45,825 nucleotides of DNA from Escherichia coli (GTDB lineage Bacteria > Pseudomonadota > Gammaproteobacteria > Enterobacterales > Enterobacteriaceae): the NCBI RefSeq assembly GCF_003334765.1, contig NZ_QOWT01000032.1; one strand, written 5' to 3'. Made by a program: the position numbers and the translations under genes. Positions 72-45,825 of the stretch are shown here, piece after piece. Below the pieces are notes generated by a model. The model did not search any database. It was not told the DNA's origin and saw only the letters and a program-made list of their open reading frames with translations. Within the stretch, counting starts at the first letter, position 1; each line of letters opens with the position of its first letter.

Positions 72-220
72 GATACTGCGCTGGATACTACAAACTACTT
101 CCACCGAACCCACCGTCATTAGTGGTGGGTCGTGCAGGATGACTCGCTTCGCTCGCCCTACGGGCCGTTGCTGACGCAACGTTATCCTACACGCTTAACA
201 TCTGTCTTCGATGTTAAAAC
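72..220 (-). repeat. tRNA operon spacer module (149 nt) containing a 17-nt copy of the tRNA-Lys 3' terminus at 123-139
   Basis: 123-139 tggtgggtcgtgcagga equals the first 17 nt of the tRNA-Lys genes on this strand, then diverges; module is about 85-90% identical to 376-510 over its first ~70 nt. Confidence 0.6.
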
Positions 221-296
221 TGGTGGGTCGTGCAGGATTCGAACCTGCGACCAATTGATTAAAAGTCAACTGCTCTACCAACTGAGCTAACGACCC
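221..296 (-). tRNA. lysW: tRNA-Lys (anticodon UUU)
   Basis: 76-nt reverse complement gives a canonical tRNA-Lys with TTTTAAT anticodon loop and encoded CCA end. Confidence 0.95.
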
Positions 297-299
297 GAG

Positions 300-375
300 T
301 GGTGGGTGATGACGGGATCGAACCGCCGACCCCCTCCTTGTAAGGGAGGTGCTCTCCCAGCTGAGCTAATCACCC
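300..375 (-). tRNA. valT: tRNA-Val (anticodon UAC)
   Basis: 76-nt reverse complement GGGTGATTAGCTCAGCTGGGAGAGCACCTCCCTTACAAGGAGG... with encoded CCA; 3-nt gap to lysW. Confidence 0.95.
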
Positions 376-1551: not shown

Positions 1552-2097
<546 letters not shown>

Positions 2098-2107
2098 TTA
2101 ATTATTA

Positions 2108-3400
2108 TCACAGATACGGCGACCAGGCAGGGAATTTGACCTGTCCATCAGTTGCCGGAAGACGCGCTTTGAAACGCCCATCTGTAGAAACCAAATTCAG
2201 CACGGATCCCATCCCCTGAGAAGAGCTGTAGATTACCATAGTGCCGTTAGGTGCCAGACTTGGCGTTTCATCCAGGAACGTGGACGACAGAACTTGTACG
2301 CCTCCCGTTGCCAGATCTTGTTTGGCAATGTGCTGCTGCCCACCATTGGAGCTGACCATTACCATAAATTTACCGTCGCTGCTGACATCCGCATCCTGGT
2401 TCTGCGAACCTTCCCAGGTAATACGTTGTGGCGCACCGCCGTTGATATTCACTTTATAAACCTGCGGACGACCGGCCTGGTCAGAAGTAAATGCCAGGTT
2501 CTGGCTATCCGGGAACCAGGTCGGTTCGGTATTGTTACTGCGACCATCAGTCACCTGGCGGATCTGACCAGAAGCCAAATCCATTACGTACAGGTTCAGA
2601 CTACCGGTTTTCGACAAGGCGAATGCCAGTTTGCTGCCGTCTGGCGAGAATGCAGGTGCACCGTTGTGACGCGGGAATGAAGCCACCTGACGTACAGCGC
2701 CATTTGCCAGCGTCTGAATAACCAGCGCGGAACGACCGCTTTCGAAGGTCACATAAGCCAGTTTAGAACCGTCTGGTGACCACGCCGGAGACATCAGCGG
2801 CTGCGGTGAACGGTGAACGACAAACTGGTTGTAACCGTCATAGTCAGATACGCGCAGTTCATACGGGAACTGACCGCCGTTGGTCTGAACAACGTAGGCA
2901 ATACGAGTACGGAACGCACCTTTAATGCCGGTCAGTTTTTCAAACACTTCATCACTGGCGGTATGACCAGCATAACGCAGCCACTGCTTGTTCACTTTGT
3001 ACGAGTTCTGAGCAAGTACAGTACCCGGTGCGCCGCCAGTGTCAACAAGTTGATAAGCAACATTGTAAGAACCATCCGGATTCGGAGTGACCTGACCGAC
3101 AACTACAGCGTCAATGCCCAGTGCGGACCATGCAGCTGGTTGTACTTCCTGCGCACTACCCGGCTGCTGTGGCAGACGAGCGCGATCTAACGGATTAAAT
3201 TTACCGCTGTTACGCAAGTCAGCAGCAACGATGCCGCCAATATCTTCAGGTGCCGCACCAGGCCCCGCCCACTGGAAAGGAACAACACCAATAGGACGAC
3301 CGGAATCTACACCGCTGTCGATCACAATGCGGACTTCAGCATGCAGAACTGATGCCCACAGTATGAGAAAACCAAATGCTACTCGTAATGCCTGCTTCAT
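2108..3400 (-). CDS. tolB: Tol-Pal system periplasmic beta-propeller protein TolB
   Basis: 430-aa protein [21 protein letters not shown]...; start trimmed by one codon from the ORF. Confidence 0.95.
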
Positions 3401-3532: not shown

Positions 3533-4798
3533 TTACGGTTTGAAGTCCAATGGCGCGTTTTTGAACACTTCATATACTGCCTGGCTTGGTGGTTTCGGGA
3601 TCTTCGCAAGTTTAGCTGCTGCCAACGCAGCCTGACAAAGTGCGGGATCGCCACCTTCAGGTTTGATATCCAGTAACATACCATCGGGTGCCAGTTTTAT
3701 GCGCAGCGTACAGGTTTTGCCTGCATAGGACGATGCGTCATAGAACTTACTTTCGATAGCAGATTTAATCTGCCCGGCATAGTTATTGATATCGGCCCCT
3801 GATGCGCCATTGTTTTTAGTATTACCACTCCCGGCAGGCGAAGCATTGTTCCCTTTCGCCCCTCCCCCCGTTTTCGGTGCATTCTTACCAGAGCTTAGCT
3901 CACCGAAAATATCATCTGCCTCTGCGGCCGCTTTTGCTGCAGCGGCTTTTTCAGCTGCAGCTTTTGCCGCTGCCGCTTTTTTGTCTGCGGCGGCTTTTTC
4001 TGCCGCTGCTTTCTTATCAGCTGCTGCCTTTTCAGCAGCCGCTTTTTCTGCTGCTTTTTTGTCGGCTGCAGCTTTCTCTGCTGCCGCTTTCTTATCAGCT
4101 GCAGCCTTTTCAGCAGCCGCTTTCTTCTCAGCTTCTGCTTTGGCTTTTTCAGCAGCTTCAGTTGCCGCTTTCTTTCTTGCTTCAGCTGCAGCTGCTTCTG
4201 CCGCTTCCGCTTTCTTCTTCAGTGCCGCAGCGGCTGCCTCGGCTTTTTTCTGCGCTTCGGCTGCGGCTTTGGCGGCTTCTGCTTCTGCTTTTTTCTTTGC
4301 GTCTGCAGCCGCTTTCTTCGCTGCTTCTTCCGCAGCTTTAGCATCTGCTTCGGCCTTCGCTTTAGCATCTGCCGCCGCTTTCGCTGCCGCCTCTTCAGCT
4401 TGCTTCTGCTTTAACTCGGCCTGTTTTGCGGCTTCTTCAGCCTGCTTTTTCTGCTCCTGAGCCGCTAACCGCTCTTTCTCAAGTTGCTTCAGGCGTTCCT
4501 GTTCAGCCGCTTGTTTCTCACGCAGTTCTTCAGCAGCCTGCTGTTCCTTCATCTTGCGCTGTTCATCAGAACGCTTCGCGCTTGATTCCTGGCTTTGCAT
4601 GCGTTTGTACTGCTCAACTACCGCACCTGAATCAACCATGACAGCGTCGATGGACGAACCACCGCCGCCTCCGGCTGAAGCTTCTATATTCTCATCGAAC
4701 GAACTCCAGATCAGCGCCGCAAATAAGATGACATGCAGCACTGCTGAAATAATTATCGCCCGCTTGAGCTTGTCGTTTTGTTCGGTTGCCTTTGACAC
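3533..4798 (-). CDS. tolA: Tol-Pal system protein TolA (N-terminal TM anchor, long Ala/Lys/Glu-rich helical domain II, C-terminal domain III)
   Basis: 421-aa ORF; characteristic low-complexity domain II. Confidence 0.95.
   Translation of the reverse strand: MSKATEQNDKLKRAIIISAVLHVILFAALIWSSFDENIEASAGGGGGSSIDAVMVDSGAVVEQYKRMQSQESSAKRSDEQRKMKEQQAAEELREKQAAEQERLKQLEKERLAAQEQKKQAEEAAKQAELKQKQAEEAAAKAAADAKAKAEADAKAAEEAAKKAAADAKKKAEAEAAKAAAEAQKKAEAAAAALKKKAEAAEAAAAEARKKAATEAAEKAKAEAEKKAAAEKAAADKKAAAEKAAADKKAAEKAAAEKAAADKKAAAEKAAADKKAAAAKAAAEKAAAAKAAAEADDIFGELSSGKNAPKTGGGAKGNNASPAGSGNTKNNGASGADINNYAGQIKSAIESKFYDASSYAGKTCTLRIKLAPDGMLLDIKPEGGDPALCQAALAAAKLAKIPKPPSQAVYEVFKNAPLDFKP
3929..4514 (-). repeat. 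Imperfect tandem coding repeats encoding TolA domain II (KAAAEKAAADKKAA-type units)
   Basis: Visible DNA periodicity (gctgc/gccgc-ttt units); creates a 224-aa mirror ORF on the plus strand. Confidence 0.8.
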
Positions 4799-15264: not shown

Positions 15265-15987
15265 ATGGGACACAAGCCCTTATACCGGCAGATTGCCGAT
15301 CGCATTCGTGAACAAATTGCGCGTGGCGAGCTTAAACCTGGCGATGCGTTACCCACTGAATCAGCGCTACAAACAGAGTTTGGCGTCAGCCGGGTTACGG
15401 TGCGTCAGGCTTTGCGCCAGCTAGTCGAGCAGCAGATCCTCGAAAGCATTCAGGGCAGCGGGACTTACGTCAAAGAAGAGCGGGTCAATTACGATATTTT
15501 TCAGTTAACCAGTTTTGATGAAAAACTGTCGGACCGTCACGTCGATACACACAGTGAAGTTCTGATATTCGAAGTGATTCCGGCTGACGATTTTCTTCAG
15601 CAACAGCTACAAATCACCCCGCAGGATCGTGTGTGGCATGTGAAGCGCGTGCGCTATCGCAAGCAAAAGCCAATGGCGCTGGAAGAAACCTGGATGCCGC
15701 TTGCGTTGTTCCCGGATCTCACCTGGCAGGTCATGGAAAATTCGAAATATCACTTTATCGAAGAAGTGAAGAAAATGGTTATCGATCGTAGCGAACAGGA
15801 AATCATTCCTCTGATGCCAACCGAAGAGATGAGCCGTCTGCTTAATATCAGCCAGACAAAGCCGATTCTTGAAAAAGTATCGCGTGGATATTTAGTTGAT
15901 GGTCGGGTGTTTGAATATAGCCGCAACGCTTTTAATACCGATGACTATAAATTTACCCTGATAGCGCAGCGAAAATCATCGCGATAA
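15265..15987 (+). CDS. mngR: GntR/HutC-family transcriptional repressor MngR (FarR)
   Basis: 240-aa ORF with N-terminal GntR winged HTH and UTRA-like C-terminal domain. Confidence 0.93.
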   Translation: MGHKPLYRQIADRIREQIARGELKPGDALPTESALQTEFGVSRVTVRQALRQLVEQQILESIQGSGTYVKEERVNYDIFQLTSFDEKLSDRHVDTHSEVLIFEVIPADDFLQQQLQITPQDRVWHVKRVRYRKQKPMALEETWMPLALFPDLTWQVMENSKYHFIEEVKKMVIDRSEQEIIPLMPTEEMSRLLNISQTKPILEKVSRGYLVDGRVFEYSRNAFNTDDYKFTLIAQRKSSR

Positions 15988-15991
15988 GCAC

Positions 15992-32161: not shown

Positions 32162-33219
32162 GTGCTGGCAAGGGATTGTTGCTCGTCATCTGCCTGTTAT
32201 TTCTGCCGTTGAAGTCTGCAATGGCGCTGAACTGCTATTTTGGTACATCTGGTGGCGCAGTAGAAAAATCAGAAGCGATTCAACCGTTTGCTGTACCAGG
32301 CAATGCCAAACCCGGTGATAAGATCTGGGAATCTGACGATATTAAAATTCCCGTCTATTGTGACAACAATACCAACGGCAACTTTGAAAGCGAGCATGTC
32401 TACGCCTGGGTAAACCCCTATCCGGGGGTGCAGGATCGTTATTATCAACTCGGCGTGACATACAACGGTGTCGATTACGATGCCAGTCTGGGAAAAAGTC
32501 GCATCGACACTAACCAGTGTATCGACAGTAAGAACATTGATATTTATACCCCTGAGCAGATCATCGCGATGGGATGGCAGAACAAAATTTGCTCGGGCGA
32601 TCCCGCTAATATTCATATGTCGCGTACCTTTCTCGCTCGCATGCGGTTATACGTCAAAATACGAGAAATGCCGCCGCATGATTATCAAAGTACGCTTAGC
32701 GACTATATCGTCGTGCAATTTGACGGTGCCGGTAGCGTTAACGAAGACCCTACTGCCCAAAACCTGAAATATCATATTACTGGTCTGGAAAACATTCGCG
32801 TGCTGGATTGCAGCGTCAATTTTTCCATTTCACCGGAAACACAGGTGATTGATTTTGGTAAATTTAATTTGCTGGATATACGTCGCCACACAATGTCGAA
32901 AACGTTCAGTATTAAAACGACCAAGAGCCAAAACGATCAATGCACCGACGGATTTAAAGTCAGTTCCTCCTTTTATACCGAAGAAACGTTGGTTGAAGAA
33001 GATAAAGCATTGTTGATTGGTAATGGTCTGAAGCTACGTTTACTGGATGAAAACGCCTCGCCTTATACCTTCAATAAATATGCTGAATACGCCGATTTCA
33101 CCAGTGACATGTTGGTCTACGAAAAAACCTATACGGCTGAACTTTCGTCCATTCCAGGCACCCCCATCGAGGCTGGCCCCTTCGATACAGTGGTGCTTTT
33201 TAAGATTAACTATAACTGA
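32158..33219 (+). CDS. ybgO: Fimbrial-like protein, probable tip adhesin or minor subunit
   Basis: 353 aa from [23 protein letters not shown]; last gene of the operon. Confidence 0.85.
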
Positions 33220-33227
33220 TTTACCAT

Positions 33228-33263
33228 GATGCCCTTTGCCGCCGGAAAGGGCATCTCTTTCAG
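33228..33263 (+). terminator. Rho-independent terminator of the ybgDQPO operon
   Basis: Hairpin gatgcccttt-gccgccgg-aaagggcatc followed by tctttc. Confidence 0.65.
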
Positions 33264-33370
33264 AAAATTGCTGATTTTCCCCTTTTCCTTGATTGCTGTT
33301 ATTTTTTCCTGGCCCAGCTTTCTTTATGCTGTATCGATACACCAAAGAGAAAATAATGAGGGAGCGAAGG

Positions 33371-34417
33371 ATGCCAGTTTTGCAGTGGGGAATGTTATGT
33401 GTGCTATCACTTCTCCTTTCTATTGGTTTCCTCGCGGTACATCTCCCGGCGGCGCTATTACTTGGGCCGATGATCGCCGGGATCATCTTTAGTATGCGCG
33501 GAATTACTCTGCAACTTCCCCGCTCTGCTTTTCTCGCCGCCCAGGCCATTCTTGGCTGCATGATTGCGCAAAACCTCACTGGTTCGATTCTCACCACCCT
33601 GGCCGTCAACTGGCCGATCGTGCTTGCAATTTTACTGGTAACGCTGCTTTCCAGCGCCATTGTGGGTTGGTTATTGGTGCGCTATAGCTCATTGCCTGGA
33701 AATACCGGTGCCTGGGGCTCCTCTCCTGGCGGCGCGGCGGCAATGGTCGCTATGGCGCAAGATTACGGCGCAGATATTCGCCTGGTGGCGTTTATGCAAT
33801 ATCTGCGAGTGCTGTTCGTCGCGGGGGCCGCTGTTCTGGTCACCCGCATGATGCTGGGCGATAACGCTGAAGCGGTTAACCAGCATATCGTCTGGTTCCC
33901 GCCAGTGAGCATTAATCTCCTGCTTACTATTTTGCTCGCGGTCGTTGCCGGTACAGTGGGATGCCTGCTGCGTCTTCCTTCCGGCACGATGCTCATCCCG
34001 ATGCTGGCGGGCGCAGTGCTCCAGTCTGGTCAGCTCATCACCATCGAACTACCGGAATGGCTGCTGGCGATGGCGTATATGGCAATTGGCTGGCGGATTG
34101 GTCTTGGTTTCGATAAACAAATCTTACTGCGGGCACTACGCCCGCTACCGCAAATCCTGCTGTCGATTTTTGCTCTGCTGGCTATTTGTGCGGGTATGGC
34201 GTGGGGGCTGACCCGGTTTATGCACATTGATTTTATGACTGCCTACCTCGCCACCAGCCCCGGCGGGCTTGATACCGTGGCGGTCATCGCCGCAGGGAGC
34301 AATGCCGATATGGCGCTCATTATGGCGATGCAAACCCTACGCCTGTTCAGTATTTTGCTGACAGGGCCTGCCATTGCGCGGTTTATTTCAACCTATGCGC
34401 CGAAGCGGTCGGCCTAG
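33371..34417 (+). CDS. abrB: AbrB-family polytopic membrane protein (putative regulator/transporter)
   Basis: About 348-aa hydrophobic ORF; start chosen at [11 protein letters not shown]; 3' end overlaps nei by 4 bp. Confidence 0.85.
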
Positions 34418-35205
34418 TGCTGGCAGCCAGGGCACCAGTAAAACGGGCGAGATGACAGCGTGGTTTTCTCAATGATGCTGCCACAACGTTCGCACGGTTC
34501 GCCATCTCGATGAAAAACCTTAAAGCGAAACAGCGCCCCATGATGCTTATTCTCATCCACCTGCCCCCGCGTAGCGTAGGAAAATCGAGGAATCTCCAGT
34601 AACGCGTGTGCGAGTGCATCCAGTTGCGCCGCATTGAGATCTTTCGCTTTATGATTTCCAGTCAACCCAACCTGCCAGAGGATCTCCACCCGCAAATAAT
34701 TGCCAAGCCCAGCCAGAAACGCCTGATCGAGCAGTAATCCAGCAAACTGACAGTTACGAAAGCGCGGCGACAATAATCGTTCTTTCACCACCTCCGGCGT
34801 CAGATTCGGATCCAGCACATCGGGACCAACGCGTTGTAAAAACGGATGCGTGGTCAGTTGTTCCGGGGTCAACATCTCAATATCCGAGGCGCTATAAAGC
34901 AGAATGGTTTTGTCAGCCGTTTGCAGTTTTACCCGCAATACTCGCGTGGTCTGCGGCTCTTCGCCGGTATCAACCACGCGCCAGACGCCGTAAAGCTGAT
35001 TATGGCTGTAGAGCGTTAAGTCGTTGGAAAAATGAGTTAACAACGCCTTACCACGCGTTTCCACATGGGTAACGTGTTGACCGATAAGTTGTGATTGATA
35101 AGGTTTTAACTGCGGGAAGGCAAACCAGACATCAGTTAGTGGTTTGCCTTTGATCGCCGCCTCCAGGTTATCCGCTGCACGGCGGATCTCCGGGCCTTCA
35201 GGCAT
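34414..35205 (-). CDS. nei: Endonuclease VIII (DNA glycosylase/AP lyase)
   Basis: 263-aa ORF beginning MPEGPEIRR (catalytic Pro2/Glu3) with C-terminal zinc finger CERCG...CPGCQ. Confidence 0.96.
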
Positions 35206-35240
35206 GGTGATATCCTTTTTTCATTCTTTATTAATCGGGG

Positions 35241-35975
35241 TTATGCTGCGACAACAATCCCCTTTTCGGCAAATGCAGAGCGTAGTCGGCGGGCGAACGC
35301 CAGTGCGTGCTCGCCGTCGCCATGCAGGCAGACCGTTTGCGCCGCGACCGTTGCCCATTCGCCGGTGATACTTTTGACTCTGCCGTGTTGCACCATCTCC
35401 AGCGTTTGCGCCAGCGCCTGTTCTTCGTTTTCAATCAACGCGCCTGACTGGCTTCGCGGCACCAGCGAGCCGTCAGCCTGATAACCGCGATCGGCAAACA
35501 CTTCCTCGCGCGTTGTCAGACCATATTGCTTGCCTGCACGAATCAGCTCGCTTCCCGCCAGCCCGACGAGAATCAATGCTGGATCGCAAGCGTATACCGC
35601 TCTGGCGATGGCGTCTGCCAGTTGTGCTTCTTTCGCCGCCTGGTTGTACAACATGCCGTGCGGTTTGACATGACGCATTACGCCGCCTTGCGCACGGGCA
35701 ATCGTTGCCAGCGCGCCAATTTGATACAGCGTCTGGGCGTAAACGGTTTCTGGCGGCAGCTGCATGGCGCTGCGACCAAAATTTTCCCTGTCGGGAAAAC
35801 TCGGGTGAGCGCCAATCGCGACACCATTTTTTATTGCTTCACGCACGCAAGCCTGCATGATTTGCGCATCGCCTGCATGAAATCCACAGGCAATATTGGC
35901 AGAGGAAACCAGCGTTAATAGCTCTGCGTCGCTGGCGCAGCCTTCGCCCAGATCGGCGTTCAGGTCAATTTTCAT
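35241..35975 (-). CDS. pxpA: 5-oxoprolinase subunit A (LamB/YcsF family)
   Basis: 244-aa [23 protein letters not shown]... Confidence 0.92.
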
Positions 35976-36897
35976 TGTGCAGCCGCCACGCTAATTGTTC
36001 AAAATAACGTTGCTGATCTTGCCGTGCTTTTAGTGCCTCTTCCAGTGAACACTGGACAAAATGAATCGGCTGACCGAGCGGAATTTGCGCCAGATGGTAC
36101 ATATCAGCCTCAATGATACAGGCAATACGCGGGTAACCACCGGTGGTCTGTGCGTCGTTCATCAACACAATCGGCTGCCCGTTATGTGGCACCTGCACCA
36201 CGCCCGGTAACAAACCGTGAGATAACAGTTCGCGATCGGTGGTGCGTTTTAAAATTTGCCCCTGTAAGCGATAGCCCATGCGGTTACTTTGCGAGCTAAG
36301 CTGCCAGGGCGAACGCCAGAATGCATCCTGCGAGGCGCGATCGAACTCATGATATTCCGGCCCCGGCAAGGCGCGAATGCGGTTGCCCCACAGCAGCTGT
36401 TTAACGCCCTGCGCTTCCATAGAATCACGCTTCGATTTGCCAATCGGGAGTCGGTCACCATCCTTCAGTAAACGGCCTTCCAGCCCGCCAATCCCCACTT
36501 TGAGATCGGTGCTGCATGAGCCCATTACCGGCGGAACATCAATACCACCCGCGACCGCCAGATAACTGCGCATCCCGTGCTGCGGGCGTTTAAGCGTTAA
36601 ACGCTGGCCTGCTTTCATCGGCAATCGCCAGCCGGTCCAGACGGCATTATCATCCAGCCGCGCTTCGCAACCGGCACCCGTCAGAGCAAACCACCCATCA
36701 GTTTCGAACTCAACAGTTAACTGACCGAGCGTGATCTCCAGCGCGGGGGCATTGGCGTCATTACCCACCAGTAGGTTAGCAATGCGTAACGCGGGCATAT
36801 CCAGTGCGCCGCAGTGGCTGATACCCGACTGGCGAAAACCGTGACGACCGCCATCCTGCACAGTGGTATACATGCCCGCACGAATAATCTTCAGCAT
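35965..36897 (-). CDS. pxpC: 5-oxoprolinase subunit C (allophanate hydrolase subunit 2-like)
   Basis: 310-aa ORF; overlaps pxpA and pxpB. Confidence 0.9.
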
Positions 36898-43155: not shown

Positions 43156-44278
43156 TTAGTACAAAAAGTGAACTTCTGATGATCTTTCCCTGTGTTTAAC
43201 GCAGCCTTCTTTCTTTTCCTCTTCACCCTTAATGTCTTTGCAATCTCTTAATAAATTCAGTGCCATCTTCTTTATTCCAGATATTATTTAGGCTGCGTTT
43301 CCTCTTCTTATCCGGCTGGCATCTTCATTCATTTTTACATCTAACACCCAATGAAGACTGTGCTCGATCAGCCAGTGCGCTCTGATAGCATGTGCAAATT
43401 CTTTAGCATCCATATCCTTTGATGAAATATAATATCGGATGCTTACACCTTCTGCTGATTTATCTTCTTTCTTCTGCCTGAATGACAATGCTACACAAAG
43501 CTTTTTTAATCCCTTCCATTCGAATTCAAAATCACAAAAGTTCAGGCGTTACGTTACTGACAATATGCAAACGTGTTTCTTTTCTTCCATGACTTATCTC
43601 CTGCGTACTAAACGAATCGCCTTTATAATTAGAAAACACATTTACAGGAAATTTTTCCTCGAATGCATGATGTAATTTCCCCTGATTGCCTTTTACTGCC
43701 AGAAGATAATCTGCTTTTTTATCTTTGATCTTCGAAGCGATATCTTTCTGACAGCCCATAGCATCAATGGTTATCAAATTTTTCTTTAAATACAGTAGGT
43801 TAAGCAACTCTGGAATGGCTGTAATCTCATTACTTTTGGCTTCCGTTTTCACCTGCCCCAGTACAACACCATTTTCGTTCGAGAATGCACTCACCATATG
43901 GATTGCTCCTTTTCTTTTTCCCTTATCAAAGGAGCCTCTTATGGTCTTTCCATCTATTGCTATAATTTCACCATCAGTGATTTCATGGCACTCCTGCATC
44001 CATTCAATAAACATCTTTTCAAAGGCCAAACTGTCAATGTTACTCACAACGCGTGCAATGGTGTCATCGACCGGAATGCCATTATCAAAATCACCATATT
44101 TCTTTAGCCATTCAAGTCTTTCATGTCCAAAATCTTCAATTTCCTGCCACTCATCGGCACCTGCAATTACTGCACATACGGTGAGAAACAAAATAGCAGA
44201 TAATTTATGTTTAACCTTTCCTTGTTGTCGTATATCAGGGGTCACTGAAATATAATCAAGCAAACTTTGAATACTCAC
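43156..44278 (-). pseudogene. ybfL: ISAs1-family (H-repeat) transposase pseudogene: frameshift near 43530 and in-frame TAA at 43288
   Basis: Three consecutive pieces (43532-44278; 43291-43488; 43156-43287) together cover a full-length transposase; about 65% identical to ybfD so not a recent duplicate; K-12 annotates pseudogene fragments ybfQ/ybfL here, assignment uncertain. Confidence 0.75.
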
Positions 44279-44351
44279 CTGGCGTCCTTTTTTATCTTTT
44301 TAGTTATTCCAAAGGTTAAATTTTGATCACCTGTAGGCGTTAAAGCAAAGA

Positions 44352-44381
44352 TGAAAATCGTGATTTACATCACAATTTTCA
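44352..44381. other. 13-bp inverted repeat with 4-bp spacer between ybfC and the H-repeat copy
   Basis: tgaaaatcgtgat-ttac-atcacaattttca (12/13 match). Confidence 0.4.
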
Positions 44382-44459
44382 TGATCTTGCCCTGCCCCGT
44401 CCCTTGCTCTCATGTCTTTCTGTATGTATTTTATATTTTTCTCTTTCTGGTGTTGTTCA

Positions 44460-44942
44460 TTATGACCATTTACCAATCCAGTCAAAAACTTCATTTTTCA
44501 AATTGTTATCATAATAATCAACATCATAATAGTCTCCATAATTAATTATTTTATAACTAGCCTTCTTGTTTTTATCACTAAAATACACCCGTTGTTTTGT
44601 AGCGCAGAACTCCATATTCTCCAGTTTACTAATGTTTTTTAATCGCACGCTATAAAGAATATCATTGAAAAAATTAAGATTTATATCAACCACTCCACAG
44701 TGCGTCCTGTAATTATTAACCATTATACTTATAAAATGACCATTCCCTCTACTAATTTTTTGGTCATTAATTATTTTATAAATAATATTTTTTTCAGAAA
44801 GATATATCTCAACGCTCTTTGGTGTTTTATGTCCATAAAATACGATGTCAGAATTTGAATTGTTATCAAACCCAAGGTAAACAACAAATAAACAAAGGGT
44901 AATTAAAAAAATGACAAGTTTGCCTCTAATAATTTGAAGCAT
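44460..44942 (-). CDS. ybfC: Small AT-rich membrane-anchored protein immediately downstream of the Rhs toxin tip; probable cognate immunity protein
   Basis: 160-aa ORF with N-terminal hydrophobic anchor [25 protein letters not shown]; 17-bp overlap with the Rhs ORF; immunity role is positional inference. Confidence 0.7.
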
Positions 44943-45825
44943 CTGAACTCCCTTGCTTTGCTTTTATTGGATTATCTGCTTTTATACCATCTAACCCGAA
45001 GAGTTGCCCAGTGTTATATTTTTCAATACATGCATCGCTACATTTGGCAGAAAAATCGCCACAAGCAATACCGACAGTGTTATTTTTAAGATCCATGATT
45101 CTTTCTTTAGCTGGCTGACCTTGTCTATCCCCTGCCGCCTCATGATTTTTACCTATCACGTCAGCTATTGTTGATCCAAATGTCTTAGTCATTCGACACA
45201 TCAAGTAACAATGTCTCATTGCATCGGCGGCCCCATTATGAGCTCCGCCAACAATAGCATCCATATCATAACCGAACTGGTAAGCACTGTTAGTAATGCT
45301 GTTTGCAGCAATCAATCCAGGTACACCAGATACGGCATAAATTAGTCCACCTGATGTCATATTCTCAATCGCATCTAACCCCATTGGGTCTATCACTTGT
45401 ATGGGATTCAACGGATACTGATACATATTCCATCCACCTCTCAACCCAATCGGGTCCGGGGTGATATACCGCCCCTGCAACGGATCGTAGTGCCGGTGAC
45501 GGTTATAGTACAGCCCCGACTCCTCATCATGCTGCTGCCCTGGCAGACGGTACGGCTGGTGCAGGTGATGCGGGTTCTCCTCATTAAGCTGGTTGCCCCA
45601 TTCATCATACTCCCCGCGCCACGCCGTATTGCCGTCTTCGCTGATGAGCGCCAGCGGCAGGCCCCGGTGGTCGCAGTGGTAAAAATGAACTTTTCGCGCC
45701 GGTGTGTATTCCGGCTCCACCTGTCTGGCCAGTTGCTCCACCGTCAGTCCGCACTGCGCAAGCCACGCCCGGCTTTCACTGCTCACGCGGTCTGCCCGGA
45801 TTTCTTCCTCCAGCCTGTCCAGCAG
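44926..45825 (-). CDS. ybfO: Orphan Rhs C-terminal fragment: end of Rhs core (PxxxxDPxGL) plus about 149-aa polymorphic toxin tip of unknown activity; 5' end beyond window
   Basis: ...[23 protein letters not shown]...[13 protein letters not shown] boundary motif at aa 124-137 of the ORF; GC-rich core gives way to AT-rich tip around 45375. Confidence 0.85.

Follow-up and report, generated by a model that had tools for sequence, protein, structure and literature searches.

The abrB and nei genes of Escherichia coli converge and share four base pairs at their 3′ ends, with both stop codons lying inside a single CTAG tetramer. We consider it likely that this is an ordinary stop-to-stop overlap of convergent genes, probably neutral, whose read-through transcripts are ended by Rho. 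The finding is already known: this class of overlap has long been catalogued, the pair has been listed with overlapping transcripts, and the overlap is present in the MG1655 annotation. The analysis covered a window of 45,825 nt, meaning the whole stretch of E. coli DNA under study (contig NZ_QOWT01000032.1), which corresponds to the reverse complement of MG1655 from ~735.3 to 781.1 kb with 99.96% identity across window positions 1–43168. Near the junction, window position x converts to MG1655 position 781140 − x.

The overlapping genes and the geometry of their ends

Direct reading of the sequence places the palindrome at C 34414, T 34415, A 34416, and G 34417, and the plus strand across the junction reads ...CCG AAG CGG TCG GCC TAG TGC TGG CAG CC... 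On this strand abrB ends with GCC (Ala, 34412–34414) followed by its TAG stop (34415–34417); on the minus strand nei ends with CAC (His, 34419–34417) followed by its own TAG stop (34416–34414). The overlap is thus symmetrical, each gene contributing its stop codon together with the final base of the sense codon before it. The two open reading frames (33293..34417 on the plus strand and 34414..35205 on the minus strand) have exactly bases 34414–34417 in common. The initial annotation had described convergent abrB and nei coding sequences overlapping by 4 bp at their 3′ ends, and sequence, open reading frames, and RefSeq annotation all bear this out. The identical overlap is annotated by RefSeq in MG1655, where nei occupies 745935..746726 (+) and abrB 746723..747769 (−), as well as in strain FORC 064 and two divergent E. 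coli. FORC 064 is 100% identical to the window across a 2.1-kb query (33200–35300), and the nei/abrB locus was found in 5422 of 5426 complete E. coli genomes. With opposite strands, 3′ ends that face each other, an overlap of exactly 4 nt, and both stops inside CTAG, abrB/nei belongs to the YTAR class of overlaps. The positions of all features are given in Table 1.

Table 1. Features of the abrB–nei junction, in window coordinates (C and G values are base fractions)
Feature	Position	Strand	Description	Basis
abrB (b0715) CDS	33371..34417	+	348 aa; hydrophobic membrane protein, AbrB-duplication family	TIGR03082; RefSeq start; GRAVY
nei (b0714) CDS	34414..35205	−	263 aa; endonuclease VIII	NF007763 equivalog
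Shared tetramer CTAG	34414..34417	both	Stops of abrB and nei	Sequence, ORF ends, RefSeq annotation
Back-up stop TAA, abrB frame	34439..34441	+	First in-frame stop, 7 sense codons beyond the abrB TAG	
Back-up stop TAG, nei frame	34393..34395	−	First in-frame stop, 6 sense codons beyond the nei TAG	
C-rich, G-poor patch (C 0.35, G 0.16)	34054..34133	−	+281..+360 past the nei stop, within antisense abrB	Composition
Candidate rut patch (C 0.35, G 0.17)	34498–34577	+	abrB-strand transcript, +81..160, within antisense nei	Composition only
Candidate rut patch (C 0.33–0.36, G 0.17–0.19)	34618–34737	+	abrB-strand transcript, +201..320, within antisense nei	Composition only

Both coding sequences are real, and the gene identities given in the initial annotation are sound. 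Nei matches the NCBIfam equivalog model NF007763 over residues 1–263 of 263 (500.9 bits, cut-off 252), with a C-terminal zinc finger that terminates in ...CPGCQH. AbrB matches TIGR03082 (“membrane protein AbrB duplication”) with 286.8 bits (cut-off 94.7) up to residue 339 of 348, and it has a GRAVY of +1.08 with long hydrophobic stretches; the start used here agrees with RefSeq (1672..2718 of locus L001). The RefSeq product name of abrB, “transcriptional regulator,” is ill-suited to a hydrophobic membrane protein, and the gene is poorly characterized; it was presumably named as a regulator of aidB. The poor characterization of abrB and its mismatched product name might invite the suspicion of an annotation artefact, in which one gene ends earlier or is no gene at all and there is hence no true coding overlap. 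We rejected this reading, whose chance we put close to nil: the stop codons are read straight from the sequence and do not depend on the choice of start site, the family matches cover all 263 positions of Nei and reach residue 339 of 348 in AbrB, and the C-termini of both proteins are constant in length across Escherichia, Salmonella, and Citrobacter.

On its own strand, nei is the last gene of the run ybgI-pxpB-pxpC-pxpA-nei, with a pxpA–nei spacer of 35 nt, and it is called a terminal gene in an operon in the title of Gifford & Wallace (2000; PMC102543).

The initial annotation had presented the arrangement as notable, a view that does not survive comparison with the literature: no form of convergent overlap is more common, and the terminator issue that it raises was discussed in 2007 (Lillo & Krakauer, 2007; PMC2174442). 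In that survey, 4-bp convergent overlaps through CTAA, TTAA, CTAG, or TTAG are the cause of a jump at length 4, the modal class; 1890 convergent overlaps were found in 58 genomes, 1218 of them at least 5 nt long, and 58 were counted in E. coli. The nei–abrB pair has the geometry of this class, two complementary-strand stops in one YTAR tetramer, and without any material difference it is one among those 58. The same authors reported that TAG is enriched in convergently overlapping genes (19% vs. 8%) and that rho-independent terminators are predicted for only 23 of the 116 E. coli genes in convergent overlaps, and they raised the point that for such pairs terminators would need to lie inside coding sequence or be absent (PMC2174442). 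The overlap is no more than chance would give, and its sole mildly unusual detail is the CTAG tetramer itself: the 45.8-kb window contains only 8 occurrences of CTAG, whereas base composition predicts ~178 and a Markov estimate ~34, and TAG is the stop codon in only 3 of the 39 coding sequences checked (nei, abrB, and sucB).

Conservation of the junction in the Enterobacteriaceae

A scan with Nei across one genome per species gave 80 loci in the Enterobacteriaceae, from each of which 3 kb downstream of nei were fetched. In all 80, Nei has 263 aa and the position of its stop is identical. The last Nei residue is variable (H, K, R, T, Q, M, S, L, C, or I), so its codon can take whatever form an opposing stop requires. 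The 4-bp overlap with abrB is found in 13 of these loci: six from Escherichia (including E. albertii and E. whittamii), six from Citrobacter, and one from a metagenome-assembled genome labelled Raoultella. The junction tetramer is CTAG in five Escherichia loci, i.e. all but E. albertii; CTAA in E. albertii and two Citrobacter-clade loci; TTAG in three Citrobacter loci; and TTAA in two. Both protein lengths are constant across all four tetramers. The T–A core is invariant, and the flanking bases vary by transitions only, which are synonymous in one gene and exchange TAG for TAA, or the reverse, in the other.

A short spacer separates nei and abrB in four further loci, measuring 6 nt in Salmonella enterica arizonae, 54 nt (REP-like in appearance) in S. 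enterica diarizonae, 25 nt in C. sedlakii, and 75 nt in C. amalonaticus S646. Three more Citrobacter loci have abrB ~940 nt from the nei stop, and in the other 60 (including Klebsiella, Enterobacter, Kluyvera, Lelliottia, Leclercia, Buttiauxella, and some Citrobacter) no abrB was found within 3 kb downstream of nei. AbrB identities resolve three clades: Escherichia, with the overlap; Salmonella together with C. sedlakii and C. amalonaticus S646, with the spacers of 6–75 nt; and a Citrobacter clade, again with the overlap. The two overlap-bearing clades are the most distant pair (74–79% identical), and retention of the arrangement in both could reflect selection for it beyond that on the two stops alone.

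A TTAA version of the K-12 junction has a perfect match in 1 of the 5,426 E. coli genomes, NZ_CP025268.1, a Boston K-12 derivative. In this record all TAG stops of the 45.8-kb region (ybfD, nei, abrB, and sucB) are TAA and the 4-bp overlap is kept as TTAA; as every TAG stop there has been changed to TAA, this is an engineered, genomically recoded strain.

For the origin of the ordinary overlap we propose a neutral route. The end of nei is fixed: the zinc finger finishes three residues before the stop, and Nei has a length of 263 aa in all the relatives covered. With abrB lying directly against it, one stop codon, read as its reverse complement, provides most of the other (YTAR). The only added constraint falls on the two flanking bases, limited to transitions, while each stop codon would be under purifying selection. 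As a consequence, neither transcription unit has an intrinsic terminator.

How transcription ends around the junction

The initial annotation had also stated that there is no room for an intergenic terminator. This is true by construction, and our searches add that none was found embedded in the neighboring coding sequences. A terminator consensus scan of positions 33000–36000 returned 5 sites, against 4.0 expected from shuffles, none of them positioned to end either transcript after its stop. Folding across the junction was no better than for shuffled sequences on either strand (z = +0.35, −0.30, +0.39, and −1.41), and no hairpin with an energy of −7 kcal/mol or lower and its end no more than 3 nt from a T-rich tract turned up in the 400 nt that follow each of the two stops of the window. 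An intrinsic terminator embedded in the neighboring coding sequence was accordingly rejected on all three counts. An Rfam scan by E-value of positions 33200–35400 matched no family.

The relatives present a different picture. By the same hairpin and T-tract definition, a match lies within 150 nt of the nei stop in 46 of the 62 evaluable loci without adjacent abrB, some of the farther-downstream matches being probable false positives inside the next gene, and in 1 of the 13 loci with the 4-bp overlap. Many of the matches in loci without adjacent abrB are clear canonical terminators, 20–70 nt past the stop and flanked by an A-tract and a T-tract; one example is AAAACGGTAACC-CGAA-GGTTACCGTTTT. 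From these rates it follows that the overlap lineages are without the terminator that nei has elsewhere. Convergent pairs that need a stop in both directions have been described by Wang et al. (preprint 10.1101/2022.10.23.513370), who considered bidirectional terminators and polymerase collision, and nei–abrB is likewise such a pair. Their collision mechanism needs a stem-loop between the gene boundaries, whereas the window has none: at the gene ends there is no G+C-rich hairpin with an A-tract on one side and a T-tract on the other, as a bidirectional intrinsic terminator would require. It is in the relatives without abrB that hairpins with such flanks directly follow nei.

Published data point to Rho on the nei strand. 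Adams et al. (PMC7815308, Supplementary file 2) list a Rho termination region that is antisense to abrB and peaks at MG1655 747036 (+), 310 nt beyond the nei stop. Coverage upstream/downstream there is 68/30 without bicyclomycin and 75/95 with it; at a Rho score of 2.87 (p 7.6e-5) and with 800-nt windows, this is a modest call. The position corresponds to approximately 34104 on the minus strand of the window and falls inside the C-rich, G-poor patch of Table 1, which lies beyond the nei stop and is the most C-rich, G-poor 80-nt patch of the nei-strand transcript. Two signs of Rho action coincide on this strand: read-through that is sensitive to bicyclomycin, as published, and an untranslated C-rich/G-poor stretch of ~80 nt. 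For MG1655 745900–747099, the curated Term-seq list of the same study contains no discrete 3′ end on either strand, and its Rho table contains only 747036 (+) and nothing on the abrB strand, abrB being barely expressed there (PMC7815308). The SMRT-Cappable-seq supplements (PMC6131387) do not mention nei, abrB, pxpA, ybgL, or ybgI. Judging from base composition, Rho termination of abrB read-through inside antisense nei is plausible, with the two candidate rut patches of Table 1 as possible sites.

Under the ordinary overlap, the ybgI-pxpBCA-nei transcript continues into antisense abrB and, once untranslated, is halted by Rho a few hundred nt on; abrB transcripts are most likely ended in the same way within antisense nei. 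The initial annotation had argued that the two transcripts must read into each other. This stands for the nei strand, through the published Rho region and through the coverage overlap reported with ExcludonFinder (2025; PMC12288877); for the abrB strand, Rho termination is what we infer. Such an outcome would be nothing out of the ordinary, since the transcripts of most convergent operons in E. coli normally overlap at their 3′ ends: 276 of 370 do so, by 286 nt on average (Conway, 2014; PMC4161252).

Expression of the pair and the case for interference

Expression values were taken from the wild-type total-RNA Table S1c of Huang et al. (PMC7373196), in RPM, representing one data set and one condition. 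Sense and antisense signals are 121.5 and 1.2 for ybgI, 76.9 and 1.3 for ybgJ (pxpB), 102.9 and 2.8 for ybgK (pxpC), 40.6 and 5.0 for ybgL (pxpA), and 5.4 and 4.1 for nei; gltA stands at 2759 and 17.7. The strand column of the table is wrong for abrB, ybgO, and ybgL, and the abrB values (listed as 8.2 sense and 2.3 antisense) are therefore used only to show that all values are low. Over nei the antisense reads are nearly as many as the sense reads, and the sense signal is ~8-fold lower in nei than in pxpA. Both genes are near background, which makes frequent polymerase collisions or abundant duplex unlikely, and with expression this low a measurable regulatory effect of the ordinary overlap would be unlikely too.

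That the overlap and the lost post-nei terminator together alter expression in Escherichia and Citrobacter, either by mutual antisense repression or by a Rho-ended 3′ end without a hairpin that keeps nei low, seems to us improbable. The antisense form of this idea, to which the initial annotation had pointed with its suggestion of antisense interference, is a functional convergent excludon, in which antisense read-through or polymerase collision would make nei and abrB mutually exclusive or reciprocally tuned while RNase III cuts the duplex. The transcribed regions must overlap, there being no intrinsic terminator, and the ExcludonFinder report (PMC12288877) does include nei–abrB among 165 convergent excludons of MG1655, called where RNA-seq coverage of the two transcription units overlaps in at least half of the samples. 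As in the convergent excludons of that report and of PMC4161252, complementary 3′ ends would arise by read-through. However, reciprocal repression is the defining function of an excludon, and the listing as given there records coverage overlap only. In most of the listed pairs a spacer lies between the genes and the intrinsic terminator is inefficient or embedded, with overlapping terminators predicted by TransTerm HP for 146 of the 165, whereas nei–abrB has overlapping coding sequences and no terminator that we could find. The antisense/sense ratio of ~0.77 over wild-type nei, compared with ~0.01–0.03 for ybgI, ybgJ, and ybgK, likewise speaks for an excludon (PMC7373196), but at 2–8 RPM for both genes against 2759 for gltA simultaneous convergent transcription should be rare. 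In the same data, where counts are very small, p19-captured dsRNA over nei and abrB is low (5–21 RPM vs. 136–293 for ybgK and ybgL), and neither the rnc-14 nor the rnc-38 mutant shows more antisense reads. Termination can be aided when converging polymerases collide (10.1101/2022.10.23.513370), but the model requires a positioning stem-loop that is absent here. The arrangement is retained across Escherichia and a Citrobacter clade, but Salmonella and other Citrobacter keep both genes apart by 6–75 nt, and in many Enterobacteriaceae nei is followed by a terminator of its own and abrB does not lie downstream, so the arrangement is dispensable for nei. A regulatory effect has been reported for another tail-to-tail E. 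coli pair, arfA–mscL, for which antisense RNA crosstalk has been proposed (PMC10070815) and which resembles nei–abrB as a convergent gene pair. For nei–abrB itself we found no functional, perturbation, or single-cell experiment in the literature, and a paper on transcriptional interference (PMC10349824) has nei entries only for Klebsiella aerogenes and none for E. coli. Taken together, we regard a functional excludon as unlikely.

The other form of the idea, which we hold to be slightly less probable again, concerns mRNA stability and not antisense pairing: with the protective terminator hairpin lost, a Rho-ended nei mRNA without a 3′ stem-loop would be trimmed by 3′-to-5′ exonucleases, and its level would fall. 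The steep drop in sense RNA within one operon, from 40.6 RPM in pxpA/ybgL (735 nt) to 5.4 RPM in nei (792 nt), agrees with it, as do the hairpin and T-tract after nei in most relatives without adjacent abrB, their absence from the window, and the Rho-dependent termination reported on the nei strand (PMC7815308). The drop comes, however, from just one data set, taken under one condition and with counts that are very low, and it is equally explicable by processing or partial termination in the 35-nt pxpA–nei spacer or by the pattern of internal promoters. Given the near-equal antisense and sense reads over nei and the fall in signal from pxpA, the 3′ arrangement may have a small effect on the nei mRNA level, although we prefer an ordinary and probably neutral overlap.

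As a piece of biology, the overlap matters little; it is a clean textbook example of two stop codons held in one palindromic tetramer, and it illustrates what such an arrangement entails for transcription, namely the lack of an intrinsic terminator, clean-up by Rho, and 3′ ends that overlap. It has some practical bearing on genome recoding and refactoring, since both TAG stops can be turned into TAA synonymously (CTAG to TTAA), as in the recoded K-12 record. Should the overlap tune the expression of nei or abrB after all, the pair would be one more modest example of an excludon; and if abrB does regulate aidB and the overlap affects expression, two functions related to DNA damage would be coupled. 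For the family, the analysis makes a small evolutionary point: relatives in which abrB does not adjoin nei have kept a canonical terminator directly after nei.

The abrB 3' end and the terminator after nei

In genera that have no downstream abrB, among them Klebsiella, Enterobacter and Lelliottia, a canonical hairpin lies within a few nucleotides 3' of nei, and this hairpin looks bidirectional because it is flanked by both an A-tract and a T-tract. It is absent from the Escherichia and Citrobacter loci in which nei and abrB overlap. Since these overlap loci lack the hairpin that the other genera carry after nei, the 3' end of abrB occupies the position of that terminator.

Coordinates of the features discussed, by locus (L-numbers denote loci from other genomes)
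Feature	Coordinates	Locus	Remark
Hairpin after nei stop	3793-3860	L036, L039, L040, L042, L045, L063 and others	
Spacer between nei and abrB stops	3793-3846	L011 (S. enterica diarizonae)	54 nt
DNA upstream of abrB	1-410	L002 (divergent E. coli)	
DNA upstream of abrB	125-520	L003 (divergent E. coli)	
pxpA-nei	34414-35975	window	35-nt spacer
abrB	33371-34417	window	
SdhX/mngR junction	~15986-15990	window	MG1655 765150-765153
CTAG sites	5947, 15421, 18269, 26343, 28276, 34414, 37471, 44557	window	
Non-colinear end	43169-45825	window	MG1655 counterpart: ISAs1 / H-repeat / rhs-associated ybfQ-ybfL-ybfO region

RNA signal over pxpA and nei, and the SdhX/mngR junction

Only a short spacer separates pxpA from nei within the same-strand gene run. 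In one total-RNA table (PMC7373196 Table S1c), sense RNA falls about 8-fold between the two genes, from 40.6 RPM for pxpA (listed as ybgL) to 5.4 RPM for nei, and antisense RNA increases towards the 3' end of the operon; the sense and antisense values of ybgL, abrB, ybgO, ybgP and ybgQ need care, because for these genes the strand column of that table (rows b0713-b0718) conflicts with both the annotated genome and Table S1b of the same study.

The window holds a second very tight convergent junction, where the annotated 3' end of the SdhX sRNA (MG1655 765150) is 2 nt from the stop codon of mngR on the opposite strand (MG1655 765153). A Rho termination region has been listed at MG1655 765604 (+), antisense to mngR (PMC7815308 Supplementary file 2).

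Composition, alignment and annotation of the window

The 45.8-kb window is strongly depleted in the tetranucleotide CTAG: it is present 8 times, where base composition predicts ~178 copies and a Markov estimate ~34. One of the eight is the nei/abrB junction itself. TTAA occurs 194 times in the whole window. Colinear alignment with MG1655 is lost at the far end, where only partial matches of 91-94% are found, and the remainder is 99.96% identical to MG1655.

The RefSeq product name for abrB, “AbrB family transcriptional regulator”, looks like a carried-over misnomer. The protein is very hydrophobic, with a GRAVY of +1.08 and extended hydrophobic segments, and in NCBIfam its model is named a membrane protein duplication.

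The nei-abrB spacer and the DNA upstream of abrB

In S. enterica diarizonae, the stop codons of nei and abrB are separated by a spacer that contains the sequence …TGCCTGGTGGCGCTACGCTTATCGGGCCTAC…, which we take to be REP-like. This suggests that secondary insertion may account for spacers in the Salmonella clade. On the other side of abrB, the upstream DNA differs between E. coli strains: in one divergent strain, ybgO is replaced by a gene for a FadR/GntR-family regulator, and a second strain has a fimbrial pseudogene alone. In Klebsiella aerogenes, the distance from nei to sdhB is only ~5 kb by coordinates (PMC10349824). Given this short distance and the variable DNA upstream of abrB, the block that lies between nei and gltA, abrB-ybgOPQD, looks like accessory DNA.
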